64,000 nucleotides of DNA from NCBI RefSeq assembly GCF_044324875.1, contig NZ_CP172186.1; one strand, 5' to 3'. Position numbers and translations under genes: made by a program. Under the pieces are notes generated by a model. It was not told the origin of the DNA. It saw nothing but the letters and a program-made list of their open reading frames with translations, and did not search any database. This document shows, piece after piece, positions 1-24,576 of this stretch. The DNA is from Escherichia coli. Its GTDB lineage: Bacteria > Pseudomonadota > Gammaproteobacteria > Enterobacterales > Enterobacteriaceae. How positions within the stretch are numbered: position 1 is the first letter of the stretch; every line of letters starts with the position of its first letter.

Positions 1-855
1 ACGGTCATCACGGACGTAGACCCACAGCCGGGCTGTCCGGGTTTTACCGCTGCCCGGCTCCTGGACCGGGACGGGGATATCATCAGCATGGACTTTACCG
101 GGCATCAGCACATACTGGCGCAGGACGTCATACAGCGGCTCCAGCAGTTCAGCAACAGCACCTGTCCAGCGCCCCAGTGTGGCACGGCTCAGCTCCACTC
201 CCTGACGACGGTATATTTCTGACTGGCGGTATAACGGCAGATGGTCTGCATATTTCCCGGTGACAACATGGGCCAGAAGCCCCGCTCCGGCATAACTGCG
301 TGCAATGGGTTTTGAAGGTACTGGTGCCTGCACGATATGGTCGCACCGGCAACAGGCCTGTTTCGGACGTTGTGTTTCGATAACCTTAAAGGCGCTGCTG
401 ATAAGCTCCAGTTGCTCTGACACATCACATCCCAGAGAACTGAGTTCACCACCACAGGCAGGACAGCATTCCTCTTCCGGCCGGATAACCCGGGTTTCAC
501 GGGGAAGTGAGGCCGGTAACGGTTTACGGGCTGAAGACTGGCGCAGGGCGGATGGCAGTACCGGGTCATATTGCTCACCCAGCGTTTCCGCCATTTCTTC
601 CTGAAGTGCGCTGATTCGCTCCTGTGCTTCCTGTATCTGCCGTTCGGTTTTTGCACGAAGTTTTTCTGAGCTTTTACCGAACTGCATACGTTGCAGTTTC
701 GCAACCAGCGCCTTCAGCCGGTTGATTTCGGAAGCATAAGCCGCCACCCGCTGTGAGAGCAGGCGGTTGTATTCAGCCATCTGGCGGATGGTGTCCTGTT
801 GCGTCTGCAACAGTGCCCGCAGGCGGGCGTTCTCATGAGCAAGTGAGGTGTCCAT
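1..855 (-). CDS. tnpC: IS66-family transposase TnpC, N-terminal 285 codons (3' end outside window)
   Basis: Manual translation of minus strand from ATG at 855 is open to position 1: MDTSLAHENARLRALLQ...CCPACGG...[20 protein letters not shown]...LWVYVRDDR; colinear with the 512-aa TnpC at 8504-10042. Not in ORF track because it runs off the edge. Confidence 0.9.
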   Translation of the reverse strand, partial: MDTSLAHENARLRALLQTQQDTIRQMAEYNRLLSQRVAAYASEINRLKALVAKLQRMQFGKSSEKLRAKTERQIQEAQERISALQEEMAETLGEQYDPVLPSALRQSSARKPLPASLPRETRVIRPEEECCPACGGELSSLGCDVSEQLELISSAFKVIETQRPKQACCRCDHIVQAPVPSKPIARSYAGAGLLAHVVTGKYADHLPLYRQSEIYRRQGVELSRATLGRWTGAVAELLEPLYDVLRQYVLMPGKVHADDIPVPVQEPGSGKTRTARLWVYVRDDR

Positions 856-874
856 ATCCTCACTTTACAACGGG

Positions 875-1222
875 TTATATGCGGATTCCAGCGCGTTCCG
901 TTCGTTTCGGGTGCTTCCAGTTGATACCTTCAAGAAGCATGGATAACTGAGCCGGAGTAAGGTGCACCTTGCCGTCACGGGTGACTGGCCAGACGAAGCG
1001 GCCCCGCTCCAGGCGTTTGGTGAAGAGGCACAGTCCGTCACTGTCAGCCCACAACACTTTTATCTGGTCACCCCGGCGTCCGCGGAAGATGAACAGGTGT
1101 CCGGAGAACGGGTCATCCTTCAGGACGTTCTGAACTTTTGATGCCAGGCCGTTAAAGCCATTTCGCATATCGGTGATACCTGCAACCAGCCAGATACGCG
1201 AACCTGCAGGGAGAGATATCAT
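875..1222 (-). CDS. tnpB: IS66-family TnpB (orf2)
   Basis: 115 aa, about 75 percent identical to the TnpB at 8107-8454 ([17 protein letters not shown] motif). Confidence 0.9.
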   Translation of the reverse strand: MISLPAGSRIWLVAGITDMRNGFNGLASKVQNVLKDDPFSGHLFIFRGRRGDQIKVLWADSDGLCLFTKRLERGRFVWPVTRDGKVHLTPAQLSMLLEGINWKHPKRTERAGIRI

Positions 1223-1899
1223 CAGTGGCTGCTCCCTTTTATTTCGCGGATAAGTGTCTGTAATAACGCCGGCGTCAGTTTACCTTTAAGCCTGAGAGTT
1301 CCGGCCGGCAGAACCAGCTCACAACACAGACTGTCGGACGGTGTATTTATCTGCTCTGGTTCCTGTGCGGGGGCCGGGATTTTATTATCCGGCTCCGGCG
1401 TTAACGTCACGGGAAGCAGTGCCGGCATATTTTTTCCGGAAGGCAGCAGGCCACCTTTCCGGTATTGATGGCGCCAGTTGAAGAGCAGGTTATCGTTGAT
1501 TCCGTTTTCCCGGGCGATCTGCGCCACACAGGCTCCGGGCTGCAGTGACTGCTCCACTAAGGCGATTTTAAACTCATAAGGGAAGTTGGGCCGCCGGGGA
1601 CGTTTTTTTACCACGGGGGCTTCGGATATAACGGTGCTTTCAGGACGTACGACTGGTACCGTGGAAAATTGTCCGTAAAGGCAGGCATCAAGTTCCTGCT
1701 CCGACATGCCTGCGGGCAAAGGCCACGAAAGGCCAGCTCTCCGAAAGCGCACGAACATACTACAAACTGTTGATTTTGGTACACCCAGGCGACGCCCGGC
1801 CACAACCCGGGGTAAATGTTCTTCAAAGTGAAGACGTAAAGCTTCAGTGATCCAGGTCCGGTGTTTCATACGATAGTGTCCATTAAAAATGATGGACAT
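1222..1899 (-). CDS. tnpA: IS66-family TnpA (orf1); start codon uncertain
   Basis: C-terminal half matches IS66 orf1 of second copy (NDNLLFNWRHQYRKG...LRLKGKLTPALLQTLIREIK); upstream part of tracked ORF may be read-through. Confidence 0.75.
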   Translation of the reverse strand: MSIIFNGHYRMKHRTWITEALRLHFEEHLPRVVAGRRLGVPKSTVCSMFVRFRRAGLSWPLPAGMSEQELDACLYGQFSTVPVVRPESTVISEAPVVKKRPRRPNFPYEFKIALVEQSLQPGACVAQIARENGINDNLLFNWRHQYRKGGLLPSGKNMPALLPVTLTPEPDNKIPAPAQEPEQINTPSDSLCCELVLPAGTLRLKGKLTPALLQTLIREIKGSSH

Positions 1900-1952
1900 T
1901 ATTTTTGTAGAGCCGGAGGAAACAGACCAGACGGTTTAAATGAGCCGGTTAC

Positions 1953-2699
1953 GTTTTTCCAGCTCTTACGGTGTATTACCTCCGCTTTGTAAAGGCCATT
2001 GATGCTCTCCGCCATCGCGTTGTCATACGAGTCACCAGTACTTCCTGTTGATGCCAGTAATCCGGCTTCCTTAAGCCGCTGTGTGTAGGCCAGCGATACA
2101 TACTGAGAACCTTTATCACTGTGATGGACTGTGCCGGACGGTCGACGGGCCCATAACGCCTGCTCCAGAGCATCCAGCACGAATGTCGTTTCCATAGACG
2201 ATGAGACCCGCCACCCCACGATGTATCCGGCAAACACATCAATGATGAACGCCACATAGACGACCCCCTGCCATGTGCTGACGTAAGTAAAATCAGCCAC
2301 CCACAACTGGTCAGGACGTTCTGCCACAAACTGACGGTTTACGCGGTCGCCTGCGGCAACGGCTTTCCGGCTGACGGTAGTGCGGACCTTTTTACCCCGG
2401 AGAACACCGGCAAGTCCCATAACCGCCATGAGGCGCGCCACTGTACATCTGGCTACCCTGATTCCTTCCCGTAACAACTGACGCCAGACTTTACGCACAC
2501 CGTATACCTGATGATTCCCATCGTATACGCGCAGTATCTCTTTCTTCAGCCAGTCATCGCGCTGCGCACGGGCACTGCGTTTATAAGGATGATGTCGCTG
2601 TTGCTGACAGTGGTAATACGTTGACGGGGCAATATGTAGTTCACTGCATACCGGTCCGACCCCGTACAGCTTACGCAGCTTATCCAGCAGTGGCATCAC
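1953..2699 (-). pseudogene. IS3-family transposase OrfB, C-terminally truncated
   Basis: About 95 percent identical to orfB at 15556-16401 up to ...EVIHRKSWKN, then reads into IS66 sequence (tracked ORF 1899-2699). Confidence 0.8.
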
Positions 2700-3022
2700 T
2701 TTTTCCAGAGGCGGTCGAACTCCGCCTTCGCAAAATAAGCGGAAGCCTGGCGAAGGATATCGTTACTGCGGCGCAGTTCACGATTTTCACGTTCCAGCTC
2801 TTTCAGACGCTGACGTTCAGCGGTGGTGAGCCCGCCATCACCGCCTCCGGTATCCCGCTCATGCTGGCGTACCCAGACACGCAGAGTCTCCGGTGTACAG
2901 CCAATCTTTGGGGCAATGGAACAAATTGCCGCCCACTGTGAGTCATATTCGCCCTGACTTTCCAGAACCATACGAATCGCCCTCTGACGGACTTCGGGGG
3001 AAAAACGAGTATTTTTAGTCAT
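2696..3022 (-). CDS. IS3-family transposase OrfA (HTH)
   Basis: 108 aa [15 protein letters not shown]..., near-identical to 15208-15534 and 58909-59235. Confidence 0.9.
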
Positions 3023-3076
3023 TCTGTTTACCTCTTTCTCAGGGAGTTTAGTCTCCAGGATTCCCGGGGCGGTTCA

Positions 3077-3631
3077 GTTTATGAAAACATATCATCATTC
3101 ATTCGAGATGTTTTTATACACTCTGAAGAAAATGATCTCATTCCTGATTTTCTTAATTCGACATTCGTTGACTGGGATGATGCAAAGTACATGACAGAAA
3201 GTATGAGCTTCGTACTGGAAGAAGTATCAGTTATCCTGAACAAAGAGAATACCGAAACAACAGAAATTTCTTATGATCAAAACCTGTATTCACTTCTGGC
3301 TCATCATAATCATATTACCCCTTGCTGGAATAATGTTATTTCTCTACTGAGTGAAGATGCGTCACTTGCTGGTGATACTTTTTGTAAGTGGCTTAATATT
3401 AATTATTCTTTATTGCCAAATGACTCGTTGCCTTTGACTGATGTTCAGTTCTCGCAATTACTTATTAAGGCTGTTACATCACCTCATATCAGTAAAGAAG
3501 CGTTAATAGCGATAACCATGGCATTTAGGATAACTCTTATTAATGTACCAGAAAACTTACCACTGAATAATGCTGCGGTACTAATCAAGCAAAAATGGCT
3601 GGCACCAACCAGTACTGTGTTTGAACAACTT
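3077..3631 (+). pseudogene. Internal fragment of a low-GC gene of unknown function, truncated 5' by IS629-like and 3' by IS1
   Basis: Frame of tracked ORF 3191-3658 is open upstream to the IS boundary at 3076 and its stop codon lies inside the IS1 IR; AT-rich composition. Confidence 0.4.
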
Positions 3632-3686
3632 GGTGATGCTGCCAACTTACTGATTTAGTGTATGATGGTGTTTTTGAGGTGCTCCA

Positions 3687-3962
3687 GTGGCTTCTGTTTC
3701 TATCAGCTGTCCCTCCTGTTCAGCTACTGACGGGGTGGTGCGTAACGGCAAAAGCACCGCCGGACATCAGCGCTATCTCTGCTCTCACTGCCGTAAAACA
3801 TGGCAACTGCAGTTCACTTACACCGCTTCTCAACCCGGTACGCACCAGAAAATCATTGATATGGCCATGAATGGCGTTGGATGCCGGGCAACTGCCCGCA
3901 TTATGGGCGTTGGCCTCAACACGATTTTACGTCACTTAAAAAACTCAGGCCGCAGTCGGTAA
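3687..3962 (+). CDS. insA: IS1 InsA
   Basis: 91 aa [40 protein letters not shown]... Confidence 0.95.
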
Positions 3963-4384
3963 CCTCGCGCATACAGCCGGGCAGTGACGTCATCGTCTGC
4001 GCGGAAATGGACGAACAGTGGGGCTATGTCGGGGCTAAATCGCGCCAGCGCTGGCTGTTTTACGCGTATGACAGGCTCCGGAAGACGGTTGTTGCGCACG
4101 TATTCTGTGAACGCACGATGGCGACGCTGGGGCGTCTTATGAGCCTGCTGTCACCCTTTGACGTGGTGATATGGATGACGGATGGCTGGCCGCTGTATGA
4201 ATCCCGCCTGAAGGGAAAGCTGCACGTAATCAGCAAGCGATATACGCAGCGAATTGAGCGGCATAACCTGAATCTGAGGCAGCACCTGGCACGGCTGGGA
4301 CGGAAGTCGCTGTCGTTCTCAAAATCGGTGGAGCTGCATGACAAAGTCATCGGGCATTATCTGAACATAAAACACTATCAATAA
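3881..4384 (+). CDS. insB: IS1 InsB (expressed as InsAB' by frameshift)
   Basis: 167 aa, overlapping insA in -1 frame. Confidence 0.9.
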
Positions 4385-4399
4385 GTTGGAGTCATTACC

Positions 4400-4542
4400 T
4401 AACAAGAGATAAAATCCCCTTCTATATGCTTTCAAAAAATAGTATAAATCGTTATTCTGATATGAGTGATTTTATTCAATCCAATAATGAAACAACTCCA
4501 GAAAAGGCATTTATTAAAGAAGTTATGGGAACAGGGGACTGA
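4400..4542 (+). pseudogene. 3' remnant (about 46 codons) of the gene that preceded mcbG, truncated by IS1
   Basis: Frame is open from the IS1 junction to a TGA 4 nt before the mcbG-like start (...PEKAFIKEVMGTGD*). Confidence 0.35.
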
Positions 4543-4545
4543 CAC

Positions 4546-5109
4546 ATGGATATAATAGAAAAAAGAATCACAAAACGACACCTCAGTGAAAGTAAATTAT
4601 CAGGTGTAAATTATTACAATTGTATATTTGAACGAATACAGCTTGACAACTTTAACTTTCGCGATTGTGAGTTCGAAAAATGTCGCTTCGTAAACTGCTC
4701 AATAAAGAATTTAAAACTTAATTTTTTTAAACTTATTGACTGTGAATTCAAAGATTGTTTATTACAAGGAGTAAATGCAGCAGACATTATGTTTCCCTGT
4801 ACTTTTTCTCTTGTAAATTGTGATTTGAGATTTGTTGATTTTATTAGTTTACGGTTACAGAAATCTGTTTTTTTATCCAGTCGCTTCCGTGATTGTTTAT
4901 TTGAGGAAACAGACCTTCGTAAATCTGATTTTACTGGTTCGGAGTTTAATAATACAGAGTTCAGACATTCTGATTTGTCTCACTGTGATTTTTCAATGAC
5001 AGAAGGTCTCGATATAAATCCTGAGATAAACAGGATCTTATCTATAAAGATACCACAGGAAGCAGGTTTAAAAATACTTAAACGAATGGGAGTGGTTGTA
5101 GGGGGATGA
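4546..5109 (+). CDS. mcbG: Pentapeptide-repeat protein, McbG-like (microcin B17 immunity / gyrase protection; Qnr-like fold)
   Basis: 187 aa; MDIIEK... N-terminus and LGVVVGG C-terminus as in Qnr/McbG proteins; tandem pentapeptide repeats (CEFEKCRFVNCSIKNLKL...); AT-rich. Confidence 0.6.
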   Translation: MDIIEKRITKRHLSESKLSGVNYYNCIFERIQLDNFNFRDCEFEKCRFVNCSIKNLKLNFFKLIDCEFKDCLLQGVNAADIMFPCTFSLVNCDLRFVDFISLRLQKSVFLSSRFRDCLFEETDLRKSDFTGSEFNNTEFRHSDLSHCDFSMTEGLDINPEINRILSIKIPQEAGLKILKRMGVVVGG

Positions 5110-5511
5110 GGTGAGTAGACCCGCCGGTTGCCCGGACGGGCCCCTCCTCAGAACCGGACCTGCGGAACTACCGCATCCGGCTCCCGACAGATCAGTGTCC
5201 CCACACATATTTCAGAAAGAATGGAACATTGACTGAGTTCTCCATCTCGATGGGTATCCCAGCATTTTGAGAATCAGATCCAGCTTTTCTCATGTCATTG
5301 GGTGTGGGGTTTGAAGCCCAATGGAGCGGAAACGTACGCTAAGAAGCTAACTATATGATTTTAAGTCAATAAAGTCGTGGCGTTGTTAGGCAGGTTTACG
5401 TTGATTTGATTACCGAGTTTATTAACACTGAAAGTCCCTGAAACCGCATGGCTACTGGCATTGACGGGAAGAGTAAACAAAACCCTCGTTTTCTTTACTC
5501 ACCTCTTCTGC

Positions 5512-5814
5512 TCAAAAAATGAACTTAGCGTACGATCTCGTACGGTTGGGCCTCAAACCCCTTGTATCAATAGATTCAGTCAATGATCGGAAAGCAATGC
5601 CACGAATTTTCAGGTCTTCAATAATTCGGAGCAAATGTGAGAGTGAACGACCAAGTCGATCCAGTTTCCAGACTATCAGTACATCACCTTCGCGAAGTTC
5701 AGCGAGACAGGACTTAAGTCCCGGGCGATTATCACGAGCACCTGAAGCATGATCCTGATGTAAATGCCGGGGATCCACTCCGGCAGCAATCAACGCATCA
5801 CGCTGTAAAGCAAC
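5512..5814 (-). pseudogene. Serine recombinase (resolvase/invertase) fragment, N-terminus removed by IS66-family insertion
   Basis: ...YVALQRDAL..SGARDNRPGL...GDVLIVWKLDRLGRSL...SLTESIDT matches Hin/Gin/resolvase catalytic domain; catalytic Ser region absent; premature end. Confidence 0.7.
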
Positions 5815-6500
5815 GTAAGCGTCAACGGAGCACCGTATTGACGCTTATTTATTGGTGAGTACTACGTTCCATGGCAGGAGTTCGTCAACTCGGTTGGAAA
5901 GCCATTCCGGCAGTACGCTCAGAATATGGCGCAGATACGCTTCCGGATCGATACCGTTCAGACGGCAGGTGCCGATCAGCCCGTACAGCAGTGCACCACG
6001 CTCGCCGCCGTGATCGCTACCGAAGAACACGTAATTTTTCTTTCCGAGACAGACTGCACGAAGCGCTCTTTCCGCTGTGTTATTGTCCGCCTCCGCCAGA
6101 CCGTCATCACAGAAGTTGCACAACGCAACCCAGTGCTTCCTGATATACCGGAACGCATCTCTCAGACGGCATTTTTTCGATAACGTGTGTTCTTTCTCCT
6201 GCATCAGCTTATACAGGGAAGTCAGTAGCGGTTTACTCTGCATTTGCCTGACCGCCAGGCGTTCAGACACCGGCAACCCGCGTATTTCGTGCTCAATGGC
6301 GTACAGTTCGGGCATCAGGATTATGCCGCTTTCCTCACAGAGAGGAATTATCGTAGCATTCCCCGTAGTGATGCCATGTGGCAACTGGCTGTCCAGCTGG
6401 GAAATAGTGGATTTATCAGGCCGCCGAAACTTACTCACGCTGATACACGTATTCGTATAGAGCCCTTTTTTAACGCTGAAAATGAATACGACTGACATCG
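5815..6500 (-). mobile_element. IS66-family element, 3' fragment with terminal IR
   Basis: Terminal GTAAGCGTCAACGGAGCACCGTATTGACG at 5815 resembles the IS66 IR; contains tnpC C-terminal coding region. Confidence 0.7.
5845..6498 (-). pseudogene. IS66-family TnpC, C-terminal fragment
   Basis: ...[54 protein letters not shown]... aligns with C-terminus of TnpC at 8504-10042. Confidence 0.8.
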
Positions 6501-6510
6501 CAAAATAGTG

Positions 6511-6535
6511 GTAAGGCCGTCGGGGGCGGCCTTAC
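6511..6535 (-). terminator. Stem-loop downstream of vapC copy 1
   Basis: GTAAGGCCG-tcggggg-CGGCCTTAC, followed on the minus strand by a T-rich run. Confidence 0.45.
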
Positions 6536-6539
6536 TCCT

Positions 6540-6956
6540 TTATCCTGCCCAGTCTTCCAGTACCAGTCCAGGCACCCGCTCAAACTCTCTCACATTATTC
6601 GTCACCAGTATTGCCCCGGTGGCGATGGCGTGCCCGGCGATCGCCGTGTCGTTCGGACCGATCGGCGTGCCGGCGAGGCGCAGCGCCACCTTAACCTCCG
6701 TGGTTGCATCCACCGCAGCGCGATCCCAGGGCAGGATGGCATCGAGACGGGCGCAGAACGCGTCAACCAGCTGCACGTGGCGTGGCGATGCCTTTGGACC
6801 GGTGGCGCCGAAGCGCATCTCGGAGTAGGTGATGGCCGAGACCACTATACGGTGACCGCGCAGCACCGCCTGCTCCAGATTCTTAAGCACTGCTTCAGGC
6901 TGCTCGCGCATGATGAACGAGCAGATGTTCGTGTCGAGCATATAGATCTTGTTCAC
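6540..6956 (-). CDS. vapC: VapC toxin (PIN-domain RNase), copy 1
   Basis: 138 aa MNKIYMLDTNICSFIM...; overlaps vapB by 4 nt. Confidence 0.9.
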   Translation of the reverse strand: MNKIYMLDTNICSFIMREQPEAVLKNLEQAVLRGHRIVVSAITYSEMRFGATGPKASPRHVQLVDAFCARLDAILPWDRAAVDATTEVKVALRLAGTPIGPNDTAIAGHAIATGAILVTNNVREFERVPGLVLEDWAG

Positions 6957-7183
6957 AGGTTAAATCGTCCTTCGTCGCAGACAACGTCCTCGCGTTCCGT
7001 CATAAAGCCCGGATCGGCCTTTTCTAGCTCCAGGAATGAGCTCCAGCTCGGGCGGAGGGGACGCAGAATGATTCTGTCCCCTTCCCGTACAATCTCCAGC
7101 TCACTCACCCCCTCAAAATCCAGATCGCGGGGCAGACGGATCGCGCGGTTATTGCCATTTTTGAAAATAGATACGGTTCTCAT
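6953..7183 (-). CDS. vapB: VapB antitoxin (AbrB/SpoVT-type), copy 1
   Basis: 76 aa MRTVSIFKNGNNRAIRLPRDLDFEG... Confidence 0.9.
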   Translation of the reverse strand: MRTVSIFKNGNNRAIRLPRDLDFEGVSELEIVREGDRIILRPLRPSWSSFLELEKADPGFMTEREDVVCDEGRFNL

Positions 7184-7222
7184 GTCTTCCTCCTGGCAAG
7201 ATGGCTTTTATATATGTTTAGT

Positions 7223-7301
7223 ATATGCAGATGTGATACATATGTATATGTTATAGATATGCAGATGTGTGAGATATGCGTATGCCTGTCATATGCAGAT
7301 G
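7223..7301. promoter_or_regulatory. Three direct ATATGCAGATG repeats at exact 34-bp spacing upstream of vapB copy 1
   Basis: Repeats start at 7223, 7257, 7291; an inverted copy (TATCTGCATG) follows at about 7324. Confidence 0.4.
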
Positions 7302-7708
7302 CCAAACATATGGATATGCATGGTATCTGCATGTTTCTCTCTTTTTTCACCGGGATCCGAAAAATATCAGTCACGGATCTTCCTCTCCCCCACACAACAC
7401 CACCTCCTGTAAGTACAACATGTAGTACTTCCTTCGGCTGCTCATGACACTATATGTTGTGTTATTTCCCTGACTTGTGATGCGCCACGCAGGGGCGGAA
7501 AACAGCGATATGATGATTTCCTCATCGTGTAGACTGGCCCCCTGAATCTCCAGACAACCAGTATCACTTATTTAAGTGATAGTCTTAATACTAGTTTTTA
7601 GACTAGTCATTGGAGAGCAGATGATTGATGTCTTAGGGTAAGCGTACAGCCTGAACCGTCTGGTCAGAATCTGACGAATTAGACAAAGTGGTGTCCACCA
7701 AATAAGTA

Positions 7709-8503: not shown

Positions 8504-10042
8504 ATGAACGACATCTCTTCTGACGACATCTTCCTGCTGAAACAGCGCCTGGCCGAACAGGAAGCGCTGATCCACGCCCTGCAGGAAAAGCTGAGCAACC
8601 GGGAGCGCGAAATAGACCATCTGCAGGCGCAGCTGGATAAACTCCGCCGGATGAACTTCGGCAGTCGTTCCGAAAAAGTCTCCCGCCGTATCGCACAAAT
8701 GGAAGCCGATCTGAACCAGCTTCAGAAAGAGAGCGATACGCTGACTGGTAGGGTGTATGACCCGGCAGTACAGCGTCCGTTGCGTCAGACCCGCATCCGT
8801 AAGCCGTTCCCTGAATCACTACCCCGTGACGAAAAGCGACTGTTGCCTGCGGCGCCGTGCTGCCCGAACTGCGGCGGTTCACTGAGCTATCTGGGCGAGG
8901 ATACCGCCGAACAGCTGGAGTTGATGCGTAGCGCCTTCCGGGTTATCCGGACGGTACGGGAAAAACATGCCTGTACTCAGTGCGATGCCATCGTGCAGGC
9001 ACCTGCACCTTCGCGGCCCATCGAGCGGGGTATCGCCGGACCGGGGCTGCTGGCCCGCGTGCTGACCTCGAAGTATGCAGAGCACACCCCGCTGTATCGC
9101 CAGTCAGAAATATACGGCCGGCAAGGTGTGGAGCTGAGCCGTTCACTGCTGTCGGGCTGGGTGGATGCATGCTGCCGGCTGCTGTCTCCGCTGGAAGAGG
9201 CGCTTCATGGCTATGTCATGACTGACGGCAAACTCCATGCCGATGATACCCCGGTCCAGGTACTGATGCCGGGTAATAAGAAGACGAAGACCGGGCGGTT
9301 GTGGGCGTATGTTCGTGATGACCGCAATGCCGGGTCAGCGTTGGCACCTGCAGTGTGGTTCGCTTACAGCCCGGACAGAAAAGGCATCCATCCGCAGACT
9401 CATCTTGCTTGCTTCAGCGGTGTGCTGCAAGCGGATGCGTACGCCGGGTTCAACGAGCTGTATCGCAATGGTGGGATAACGGAAGCTGCCTGCTGGGCTC
9501 ATGCCCGCCGAAAGATCCACGATGTGCACGTCCGCATCCCGTCAGCACTGACGGAAGAAGCCCTGGAGCAGATCGGTCAGTTGTACGCCATAGAGGCGGA
9601 TATAAGGGGAATGCCGGCAGAGCAGCGGCTTGCTGAACGTCAGCGAAAAACGAAACCGCTGTTGAAATCCCTGGAAAGCTGGTTGCGTGAAAAGATGAAG
9701 ACCCTGTCGCGACACTCAGAGTTGGCGAAGGCGTTCGCGTACGCACTTAACCAGTGGCCGGCACTGACGTACTATGCGAACGATGGCTGGGTGGAAATCG
9801 ACAACAACATCGCTGAAAATGCCCTGCGGGCGGTAAGTCTGGGTCGTAAAAACTTCCTGTTCTTCGGCTCTGGCCATGGTGGTGAGCGGGGAGCGCTACT
9901 GTACAGCCTGATAGGGACGTGCAAACTGAATGACGTGGATCCAGAAAGCTACCTTCGCCATGTGCTTGGCGTCATAGCAGACTGGCCGGTCAACCGGGTC
10001 AGCGAACTGCTTCCGTGGCGCATAGCACTGCCAGCTGAATAA
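8504..10042 (+). CDS. tnpC: IS66-family transposase TnpC
   Basis: 512 aa; N-terminal leucine zipper, CxxC...C zinc motif, DDE core. Confidence 0.95.
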
Positions 10043-17737: not shown

Positions 17738-18502
17738 CTAAACGATGAAATGAATGTGCTTTTTGCCGTGGTAAGGGGAGATCTCGATTTTGGTTTTCAC
17801 CCGGAAAACGTCCCACAGCAGCGCTTCGGACAAAATCTCCTCCGGCGTCCCGCTGGCGAGGATCTGCCCCTGCTGCATCACGATCAGCGAATCGCAGAAC
17901 ATCGCGGCATGGTTAAGATCGTGAATGGCCACAATGCTGGTTACCGGCAGCTCGCTGATCAACTGCATTAACTGCATCTGATGGTGTATATCCAGATGGT
18001 TGGTCGGCTCATCCAGCAGGATTTCGCTCGGGCTCTGCGCCAGCGCGCGGGCGATATGCACCCGCTGCCGCTCGCCGCCGGAGAGGCTTAACCATCCCTG
18101 TTCGCTTTTCTCCAGCATCGCTACCCGCTGCAGCGCGGCGGCAATCGCTTCGTCATCCTGAGCGCTCCAGTTTGAGAACGGAGAGTGGTGGGGAATGCGT
18201 CCCAGGCGCACGACGTCGCGCACCCGCATATTGGCCTCGGTCATGCCGTGTTGCTCGACGCAAGCCACGCGGCGGGCGAGCTGCTTTTTCGCCATCCGGG
18301 CGATATCCTGGCCGTCGAGGGTGACGCGACCTGCATCCGGGCGGCGCAGGCCCGCCAGAACGCGCAGCAGCGAGGATTTGCCGCAGCCGTTGGGCCCCAG
18401 CAGTCCGACCGTTTCTCCGCGCGGCACCCGCAGCGAGACATTATTGACGATGACCTTTTTGCCTGCCTTCCAGGTGATATTTTCAGCGCAAATACTCATC
18501 AC
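17738..18502 (-). CDS. ABC transporter ATP-binding protein (FecE/FepC-like, iron-chelate uptake)
   Basis: Walker A GPNGCGKSS, signature LSGGERQR, Walker B ILLDEPT. Confidence 0.9.
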   Translation of the reverse strand: MMSICAENITWKAGKKVIVNNVSLRVPRGETVGLLGPNGCGKSSLLRVLAGLRRPDAGRVTLDGQDIARMAKKQLARRVACVEQHGMTEANMRVRDVVRLGRIPHHSPFSNWSAQDDEAIAAALQRVAMLEKSEQGWLSLSGGERQRVHIARALAQSPSEILLDEPTNHLDIHHQMQLMQLISELPVTSIVAIHDLNHAAMFCDSLIVMQQGQILASGTPEEILSEALLWDVFRVKTKIEISPYHGKKHIHFIV

Positions 18503-21594: not shown

Positions 21595-21979
21595 CCAAAA
21601 CCACTGTTGTCCCGCCATTCTGGCGATTCCTGAAAGCCCTTTGGCTAAAAAATAGTCTTAACATGGTTTATTTTCCGAATTCCAAACTGACCCCGCTAAC
21701 GCGGAGATACGTCCCGACTTCGGGTAAACCCTCGTCGGGACCACTCCGACCGCGCACAGAAGCTCTCTCATGGCTGAAAGCGGGTATGGCTTAGCAGGGC
21801 TGGGGATGGGTAAGGTGAAATCTATCAATCAGTACCGGCTTACGCCGGGCTTCGGCGGTTTTACTCCTGTGCCATATGCAACAACGGAGTGCCGCCTTAC
21901 ATGCGCTGACGCGCATTATTTGCCTTGTTCCGTCTGAAACTAATCACTATGATTAAATATGATTAACAACTAATCGGGT

Positions 21980-24339: not shown

Positions 24340-24576
24340 ATCTGATATGATTTTATATATATTTCTTAATTATCATATCATTTGCGTCTTTTCTGCCGCG
24401 CAGATCCGGTTTCCGGCTAAGTCGGATCGACCTAATCTTTGTTTCTGATATGAACACCTCGGAGAGGTGTAAGCAATGGTATAAACGAAATGTATTATGT
24501 ATCTGCATCACAGCATGCGGGCACATTTTGCGGAAGGATATGAATCCCCCCGGAATAACTGGCAAAGGACAGATAA

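Follow-up and report, generated by a model that had tools for sequence, protein, structure and literature searches.

The closest described system to the locus studied here is the microcin B17 operon mcbABCDEFG of pMccB17 (GenBank X07875 / ON989342; gene order in PMC10912980), whose last gene, mcbG, encodes a pentapeptide-repeat immunity protein of 187 residues. McbG shares its repeat type with Qnr, AlbG and MfpA, which also provide its best sequence matches in the PDB, and the literature ascribes to all of them an ATP-dependent rescue of poisoned gyrase. McbG differs from Qnr and AlbG in its cognate toxin, which is microcin B17 rather than quinolones or albicidin (PMC7897471). Orphan bacteriocin immunity genes, that is, colicin and microcin immunity genes lacking their toxin gene, are widespread on Escherichia coli plasmids, and their truncation is often common to several plasmids; the survey reporting this defined immunity genes by closeness to a toxin gene and left microcin B17 unmentioned (bioRxiv 10.1101/2024.11.06.622277). 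For microcin B17 itself, Telhig et al. (2024) described two resistant E. coli strains, C4743 and C4747, that carry only mcbG and an mcbF 'orthologue' flanked by transposase, and read them as cases of immunity transferred without the cluster (PMC10926693). Here we analyzed a 64,000-nucleotide stretch of E. coli plasmid DNA (contig NZ_CP172186.1; hereafter, the window) in which the 187-codon gene at 4546–5109 (+) adjoins a copy of the insertion sequence (IS) IS1. Judged by sequence comparison, this gene is mcbG itself, the microcin B17 immunity gene, and neither a Qnr nor a secreted effector. We consider it likely that the locus is a decayed mcb operon in which mcbG is the only intact survivor, serving as stand-alone immunity against the microcin B17 of competitors and probably expressed by weak read-through from IS1. 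Because the gene, its mechanism, its phenotype and its occurrence as an orphan are already known from published work, nothing conceptually new is at stake. The locus offers one clean, fully mapped case of a bacteriocin immunity gene outliving its toxin genes on E. coli plasmids, and one new detail, a base in the Shine-Dalgarno (SD) sequence that was seen in truncated copies only.

The identity of the gene follows from comparison with an intact mcbABCDEFG operon on plasmid p0.1229_2 (locus L001). Of 187 residues, 185 are identical (98.9%), the two differences being E17K and I108V; the latter is also seen in intact operons (L016, L018). In L001, mcbG (9147–9710) is the last of seven genes, preceded by genes annotated as a microcin B17 family thiazole/oxazole-modified microcin (TOMM) precursor, a McbB-family protein, a SagB-type dehydrogenase, a YcaO protein, McbE and an ATP-binding cassette (ABC) ATPase, which is the order of the pMccB17 operon. 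The same operon structure is visible in L016, L018 and L019. Pfam placed pentapeptide repeats of PF13599 at residues 13–77 and 85–153 (5e-9 and 3e-8) and of PF00805 at residues 112–150 (1e-8). By sequence, the closest solved structures are QnrB1 (7e-12, near full length), AlbG (4e-11, described as 'McbG-like protein') and MfpA, and from these matches we infer that McbG folds as a right-handed quadrilateral beta-helix. One could ask whether the product is instead a pentapeptide-repeat protein of another kind, a true Qnr or a secreted type III effector. What speaks for this is only pentapeptide-repeat similarity of a generic kind, shared with DotG/IcmE repeats and with PRK15377, a HECT-type effector model that was the sole effector-type match and reached 21.7 bits against a cut-off of 500. 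The Qnr family model NCBIfam NF033086 gave 52.3 bits against a cut-off of 240, and all Qnr subfamily models gave 27–42 bits against cut-offs of 425–500. With every Qnr and effector model far under its cut-off, 98.9% identity to McbG and flanks conserved on both sides, the probability of this alternative is practically nil and we regard it as refuted. A preliminary description, made from the sequence alone, had likened the product to McbG and Qnr proteins. The likeness can now be sharpened to identity with mcbG, as the native mcbF 3' end and downstream DNA of the mcb locus are still attached, and the type III effector named there as the refuting best homologue did not appear, QnrB1, AlbG, MfpA and Qnr being the nearest among solved structures and curated models. 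Nor does the locus represent a chance pattern, because its DNA is 99.6–100% identical to annotated public plasmids.

Directly upstream of mcbG lies the 3' stub of mcbF, the ABC-exporter ATPase gene (4400–4542, +). Its open frame (4402–4539, with the stop codon at 4540–4542) is 100% identical to residues 198–243 of the 243-residue McbF of L001 and comprises exactly the last 46 codons, which bears out the earlier suggestion that the short frame running from the IS1 junction is what remains of the upstream gene. A 3-nt spacer (4543–4545) separates the mcbF stop from the mcbG ATG, a spacing identical to that of the intact operon, and in more than 100 plasmids the same DNA extends upstream into a full 243-codon ATP-binding cassette gene. 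Homology to intact mcb loci covers 4400–5561 and nothing else in the window. Searches with the whole operon (blastn) and with McbA–F (tblastn) found no mcbA–E and no further mcbF sequence in the 64 kb, so that the reported absence of biosynthesis and export genes holds for the entire window, and the operon promoter is absent as well. The only additional tblastn match, at 17948–18502, is an unrelated ABC ATPase of an iron transporter (23% identical) and was discarded. Short matches (83–93% over 30–81 nt) at 21794–21902 and 24371–24448 (-) correspond to non-coding DNA of L001 between an acyltransferase gene and mcbA; these are probably shared plasmid-backbone motifs, not mcb genes. In an NCBIfam scan, neither the 46-residue stub nor the fragment on the far side of IS1 had a match, and both were identified through DNA comparison.

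Set against the pMccB17 operon, the locus thus retains the same 187-residue gene, the mcbF end, and the intron remnant and inverted-repeat element that follow mcbG, whereas it has lost mcbA–E, the operon promoter and the greater part of mcbF, and carries E17K and an A-to-G change in the SD sequence. The replicon differs too: the plasmid bearing mcbG is large, poultry-associated and typed IncK2/Z (MOB-suite), with an IS-rich region around the gene, whereas the microcin plasmids are IncF plasmids of about 70 kb. As for the orphan status asserted in the preliminary description, it stands for the 64-kb window and may or may not extend to the cell. Chicken strain Ch1 holds the same orphan mcbG on pCh101 (L002) and an intact mcbABCDEFG operon, with the McbG allele I108V, G186V, on pCh102 (L016), and therefore a replicon-level orphan need not be a cell-level orphan.

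The truncation itself is marked by a complete IS1 of 768 bp (3632–4399, +), 98.5–99.4% identical to annotated IS1A/IS1B. All hallmarks of the element are in place, namely its terminal inverted repeats, insA (3687–3962), the insB' frame extending to 4384 and an A6C frameshift motif at about 3936, and its transposase genes point toward mcbG. No target-site duplication was found: the flanking 9-mers, GAACAACTT and TAACAAGAG, differ. Because they differ and stem from different genes, the arrangement is not a simple IS1 insertion. The 555-bp fragment on the left of IS1 (3077–3631, +; 35.5% GC compared to 52% for the window) had been taken for a different truncated gene of low GC content, and a comparison with mcbB–E had been proposed. 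The former view was correct, and the latter comparison gave no mcb match. Instead, the fragment is an internal piece of the anti-phage gene tmn with both ends missing, showing 99.5% nucleotide identity to L003 4001–4555 and, by tblastn, encoding Tmn residues 896–1083 of 1264 (match at 3077–3640). The L003 match lies inside a 3795-bp gene that is found between vapBC modules on many IncF plasmids and that matches the PADLOC model PDLC02220 'Tmn' end to end with 2221 bits. The tmn 3' end recurs on the other side of mcbG at 6301–6495 (+), where tblastn aligned residues 1201–1264 to 6301–6492 with 96.9% identity, and blastn aligned window 6306–7529 to L003 4921–6187 at 88%. A full-length Tmn match is absent from the window, and because it holds only residues 896–1083 and 1201–1264, tmn is a dead gene here. 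With tmn pieces on both sides, mcbG lies within a 2.7-kb mosaic inside a disrupted tmn, in the order IS1, mcbF', mcbG, intron remnant, inverted-repeat element, resolvase fragment and IS66 fragment. Plasmid H3 was considered as a parent carrying IS1 at the same tmn site and was rejected since its arrangement differs.

These boundaries suggest how the operon may have been lost. IS1 would first have inserted in mcbF. In a second event, again mediated by IS1, recombination with a further copy of the element or an adjacent deletion would then have joined IS1 to the dead tmn gene. This second event would have removed mcbA–E together with most of mcbF, leaving no target-site duplication. The idea that the microcin context was stripped by IS activity is in line with the map, in which an intact IS1 cuts the operon and the flanks derive from different genes; all coordinates given in the preliminary description also proved correct, each element being found where it had been placed.

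We examined how widely this arrangement is distributed. A megablast search of PLSDB with 4400–5300, counting plasmids that covered at least 80% of the query, returned 129 plasmids, 123 of them at 99% identity or more, and most matches were annotated 'pentapeptide repeat-containing protein' next to 'ATP-binding cassette domain-containing protein'. Among 5426 complete E. coli genomes, mcb DNA was present in 135, always plasmid-borne, with 80% or more of the operon in 100 genomes. Three public complete plasmids share the exact IS1::mcbF' junction, namely pCh101 (chicken, Russia), CP070395 (chicken meat) and a plasmid of Br_112_kylling (Brazil; 'kylling' is Norwegian/Danish for chicken). In the assembly collection, 499 index blocks hold the exact McbG allele, and in nine of the ten inspected contigs encoding it, the tmn'-IS1-mcbF'-mcbG arrangement was found with 99.7–99.9% identity over about 9 kb. 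The tenth contig, L004 (GCA_025410425.1, locus 1–6564), has the same McbG allele in the arrangement mcbD'-mcbE-mcbF-mcbG, differing from the window at one base in 1162, and is an intermediate arrangement. In L004, a Tn3-family transposon with a PAS/HAMP/MCP-signal gene stands in place of mcbA–D, so the export and immunity genes are kept without those for biosynthesis.

At least two further truncated, IS91-flanked mcbF'-mcbG arrangements exist. Of the 16 truncated PLSDB copies, 14 belong to an IS91/IS1414-flanked type with a shorter mcbF remnant, for which chicken and hen are the main sources; black kite is a further source among related RefSeq records. Its representative, L014 (pPK8275-145kb), resembles the window in its origin from a large plasmid of poultry and in having an autotransporter gene within a few kb on the downstream side. 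The second arrangement is a diverged IS91-flanked copy in human Shiga toxin-producing E. coli (STEC) plasmids, represented by L017 (pSTEC17_183-b, from a human STEC isolate), whose allele has 96.8% nucleotide identity and nine residue differences. Like the window, L014 and L017 combine an intact mcbG, a truncated mcbF and a G in the SD sequence. Unlike the window, their flanking elements are IS91 and IS1414, and their breakpoints lie elsewhere, in L014 at L001 position 8685 with an additional 135-bp internal deletion and in L017 at 8568. L014 moreover lacks E17K. In both, mcbF'-mcbG directly adjoins IS91-family elements; elements of this family can mobilise adjacent DNA by one-ended transposition. 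L017 also adjoins genes for a colicin-type pore-former and its immunity protein. Strains C4743 and C4747 are like the window in pairing mcbG with an mcbF remnant beside a transposase and without biosynthesis genes. Across the at least two IS-flanked arrangements, mcbG is annotated as a full-length coding sequence in all 16 truncated PLSDB copies. Together with the 499 blocks, the nine of ten contigs sharing the IS1 arrangement and the wide spread of orphan bacteriocin immunity genes noted above, this can be read as a sign that mcbG is retained.

What the retained gene may do can be framed by work on the reference allele. McbG expressed alone from pBAD raised the minimal inhibitory concentration (MIC) of microcin B17 more than 26-fold, that of ciprofloxacin 4–8-fold and that of albicidin 4–5-fold (PMC7897471), so the stand-alone effect on microcin or quinolone susceptibility anticipated in the preliminary description is, for the reference allele, already published. 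In the account given by PMC6722960, McbG alone confers partial immunity (citing Garrido 1988) and mcbEFG together give 2–8-fold protection from quinolones (citing Lomovskaya 1996). In the literature on the reference allele, McbG acts on DNA gyrase such that microcin B17-poisoned complexes are rescued. On a replicon unable to make or export the microcin, it would shield its host against microcin B17 released by rival E. coli, and any side effect on susceptibility to fluoroquinolones would be small. Since the native promoter upstream of mcbA is lost, mcbG would most likely be transcribed through read-through of the IS1 transcript, and translated from its own, slightly weakened ribosome-binding site. 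We favour read-through because the IS1 transposase genes are directed at mcbG and the plus strand from 3666 to 4546 has no predicted terminator-like site. A promoter-like site is located at 3639–3666, inside the IS1 left end. Alternatively, a weak hybrid promoter at the IS1 end may contribute; IS1 can reportedly create such promoters, and a literature search on them returned nothing specific to IS1.

Several observations weigh against an expressed and functional gene. The native promoter is absent, and in a consensus scan no sigma-70 site upstream of mcbG reached 9/12. The best hybrid promoter candidate, TTGGAG-18-TAAAAT at 4386–4415, scores 8/12 and is no better than expected by chance in AT-rich DNA; a relaxed scan yielded 8/12 candidates only, which we did not count as evidence. 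IS1 itself has a weak, self-repressed promoter and is known for its polar effects. Pairing with the anti-SD is predicted to lose about 0.9 kcal/mol relative to intact operons (-6.5 with G vs -7.4 kcal/mol with A). The gene sits among pseudogenes and IS debris, and its intact frame could reflect a recent event followed by clonal spread. Lastly, the junction in C4743 and C4747 could be of the IS1 type or of the commoner IS91/IS1414 type seen in L014. Taken to its end, this line of argument makes mcbG a silent relic, still intact owing to recent truncation and clonal spread, and having neither useful transcription nor function. The near-identity of the IS1-type copies over 9 kb fits recent clonal spread, promoter-like sites in the region are no more numerous than in shuffled sequence (4 vs a mean of 4.2), the surrounding tmn, resolvase and IS66 fragments are all pseudogenes, and on one pig plasmid (H188) mcbG is itself truncated. 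On the other side, mcbG has stayed full-length through repeated IS remodelling, as seen from the IS110 insertion at 6033, from left flanks that vary between copies and from the IS1 versus IS91 types. Strains whose only mcb sequences are mcbG and an mcbF remnant were phenotypically resistant to microcin B17 (PMC10926693), and read-through from IS1 is physically possible. Because mcbG is intact through several IS rearrangements and like strains are resistant, we grade the silent relic as unlikely.

A different selective agent is also conceivable. Under this explanation, the copy would be kept on poultry plasmids because it lowers susceptibility to fluoroquinolones such as enrofloxacin, and not because of microcin B17. 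Fluoroquinolones have been used in poultry, and the plasmids that bear truncated copies come predominantly from chicken, hen, chicken meat and black kite; the ciprofloxacin and quinolone shifts cited above for McbG and mcbEFG would supply the phenotype. Yet the poultry link may merely reflect the host range of one plasmid lineage, the McbG score for the Qnr family falls under the cut-off (52 vs 240 bits), and the ciprofloxacin effect was recorded under arabinose over-expression, whereas expression from the present locus is probably low. Moreover, protection shows specificity for the cognate toxin, the effect on microcin B17 being much the larger (PMC7897471). We therefore regard cryptic quinolone protection as very unlikely to be what maintains the gene, and retain immunity to competitors' microcin B17 as the preferred explanation. 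The locus would carry practical weight only if, in its native form, it causes a measurable change in susceptibility to fluoroquinolones or microcin B17. Probiotics that make microcins and gyrase poisons derived from microcins are under consideration as antibiotic alternatives, and transferable stand-alone immunity that already circulates in poultry E. coli would blunt both.

The new detail of this locus concerns the SD sequence of mcbG at 4533–4538 (+), which reads AGGGGA in the window and AGGAGA in intact operons. The underlying A-to-G change at 4536 is synonymous in mcbF and leaves the predicted local RNA fold the same. Position 4536 is an A in every intact operon inspected and in L004. Over 4503–4593, 16 PLSDB records are identical to the window, and all 16 are truncated copies on plasmids of 130–192 kb, mostly from chicken or hen, whereas each of the remaining 113 records departs from the window at one base or more. 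The G is shared by all three truncated lineages examined, including the diverged L017. We considered that 4536G had arisen as an independent adaptive mutation in two orphan lineages, a view weakened by the occurrence of the same G in this third, diverged lineage. At 4536 and 4594 (the E17K site), all four allele combinations occur within 58 nt, and recurrent mutation or gene conversion must therefore have taken place. As a source of 4536G, adaptation is no more likely than shared ancestry or gene conversion. With 4536G in three truncated lineages, and the IS1-type copy behind an outward-reading IS1, the truncated copies may have been re-tuned to an existence outside the operon and not be passive leftovers, a notion that we consider quite unlikely. 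If it were true, with McbG made constitutively at a low level, this lineage of poultry plasmids would carry unrecognised, transferable microcin B17 immunity along with low-level fluoroquinolone protection. To our knowledge, mcbG is not reported by standard resistance-gene screens.

Downstream of mcbG, the mcb-derived DNA continues with two non-coding elements. The 3' end of a group II intron (domains V–VI; 5110–5305, -) abuts the mcbG stop codon. Its assignment rests on an Rfam match to RF00029 at 5110–5185 (-) with 34.4 bits (E = 4e-4), which is under the gathering score of 40, and on 94% blastn identity to DNA beside ltrA genes; its GC content is 54%. Because intact mcb loci have this remnant downstream of mcbG as well, it predates the truncation. 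It is followed by a 256-bp non-coding element (5306–5561) bounded by 38-bp inverted repeats resembling those of the Tn3 family (GGGGTTTGAAGCCCAATGGAGCGGAAACGTACGCTAAG; 5306–5343 and 5524–5561). This element too lies downstream of mcbG in intact loci, and it also occurs by itself on E. coli, Klebsiella, Morganella and Providencia plasmids with 81–100% identity (81–86% for matches including the latter three genera). The window departs from both L001 and L004 directly after 5561/5562, the outer right end of the element. Its position at the exact right-hand boundary of the DNA derived from mcb suggests that the element was involved in the rearrangement.

The remaining features frame the mosaic. 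On its left, the tmn fragment is bounded by an IS3-family element (1953–3076, -) that is truncated at its far end and that we take to be IS629-like from its orfA sequence. It comprises orfA (2696–3022) and orfB (1899–2699), both on the minus strand, an ALIL frameshift pseudoknot (RF01497, 2625–2741, -, 116 bits) and a terminal repeat ending at 3076. On the right, beyond the tmn 3' end, a vapBC toxin-antitoxin pair (6540–7183, -; open reading frames 6540–6956 and 6953–7183, annotated VapC and VapB in relatives) represents the usual downstream neighbour of tmn on IncF-type plasmids. Between the 256-bp element and the tmn 3' end lie two gene fragments. The first is a serine recombinase (resolvase) pseudogene (5562–5837, -) cut by the inverted-repeat element; an open reading frame at 5512–5793 (-) has the resolvase N-terminal domain, and relatives carry PF00239 (L005, L006, L010, L013) or the annotation 'recombinase family protein, partial' (L015). 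The second is the C-terminal part of an IS66-family transposase (5844–6300, -), recognized by PF03050 and PF13817 in L009–L012 and annotated as a partial transposase in L015. Within this IS66 fragment, the otherwise identical relatives L005, L006, L013 and L015 bear an extra IS110-family (ISEc45-like) insertion at 6033, and IS activity in the region is therefore still going on.

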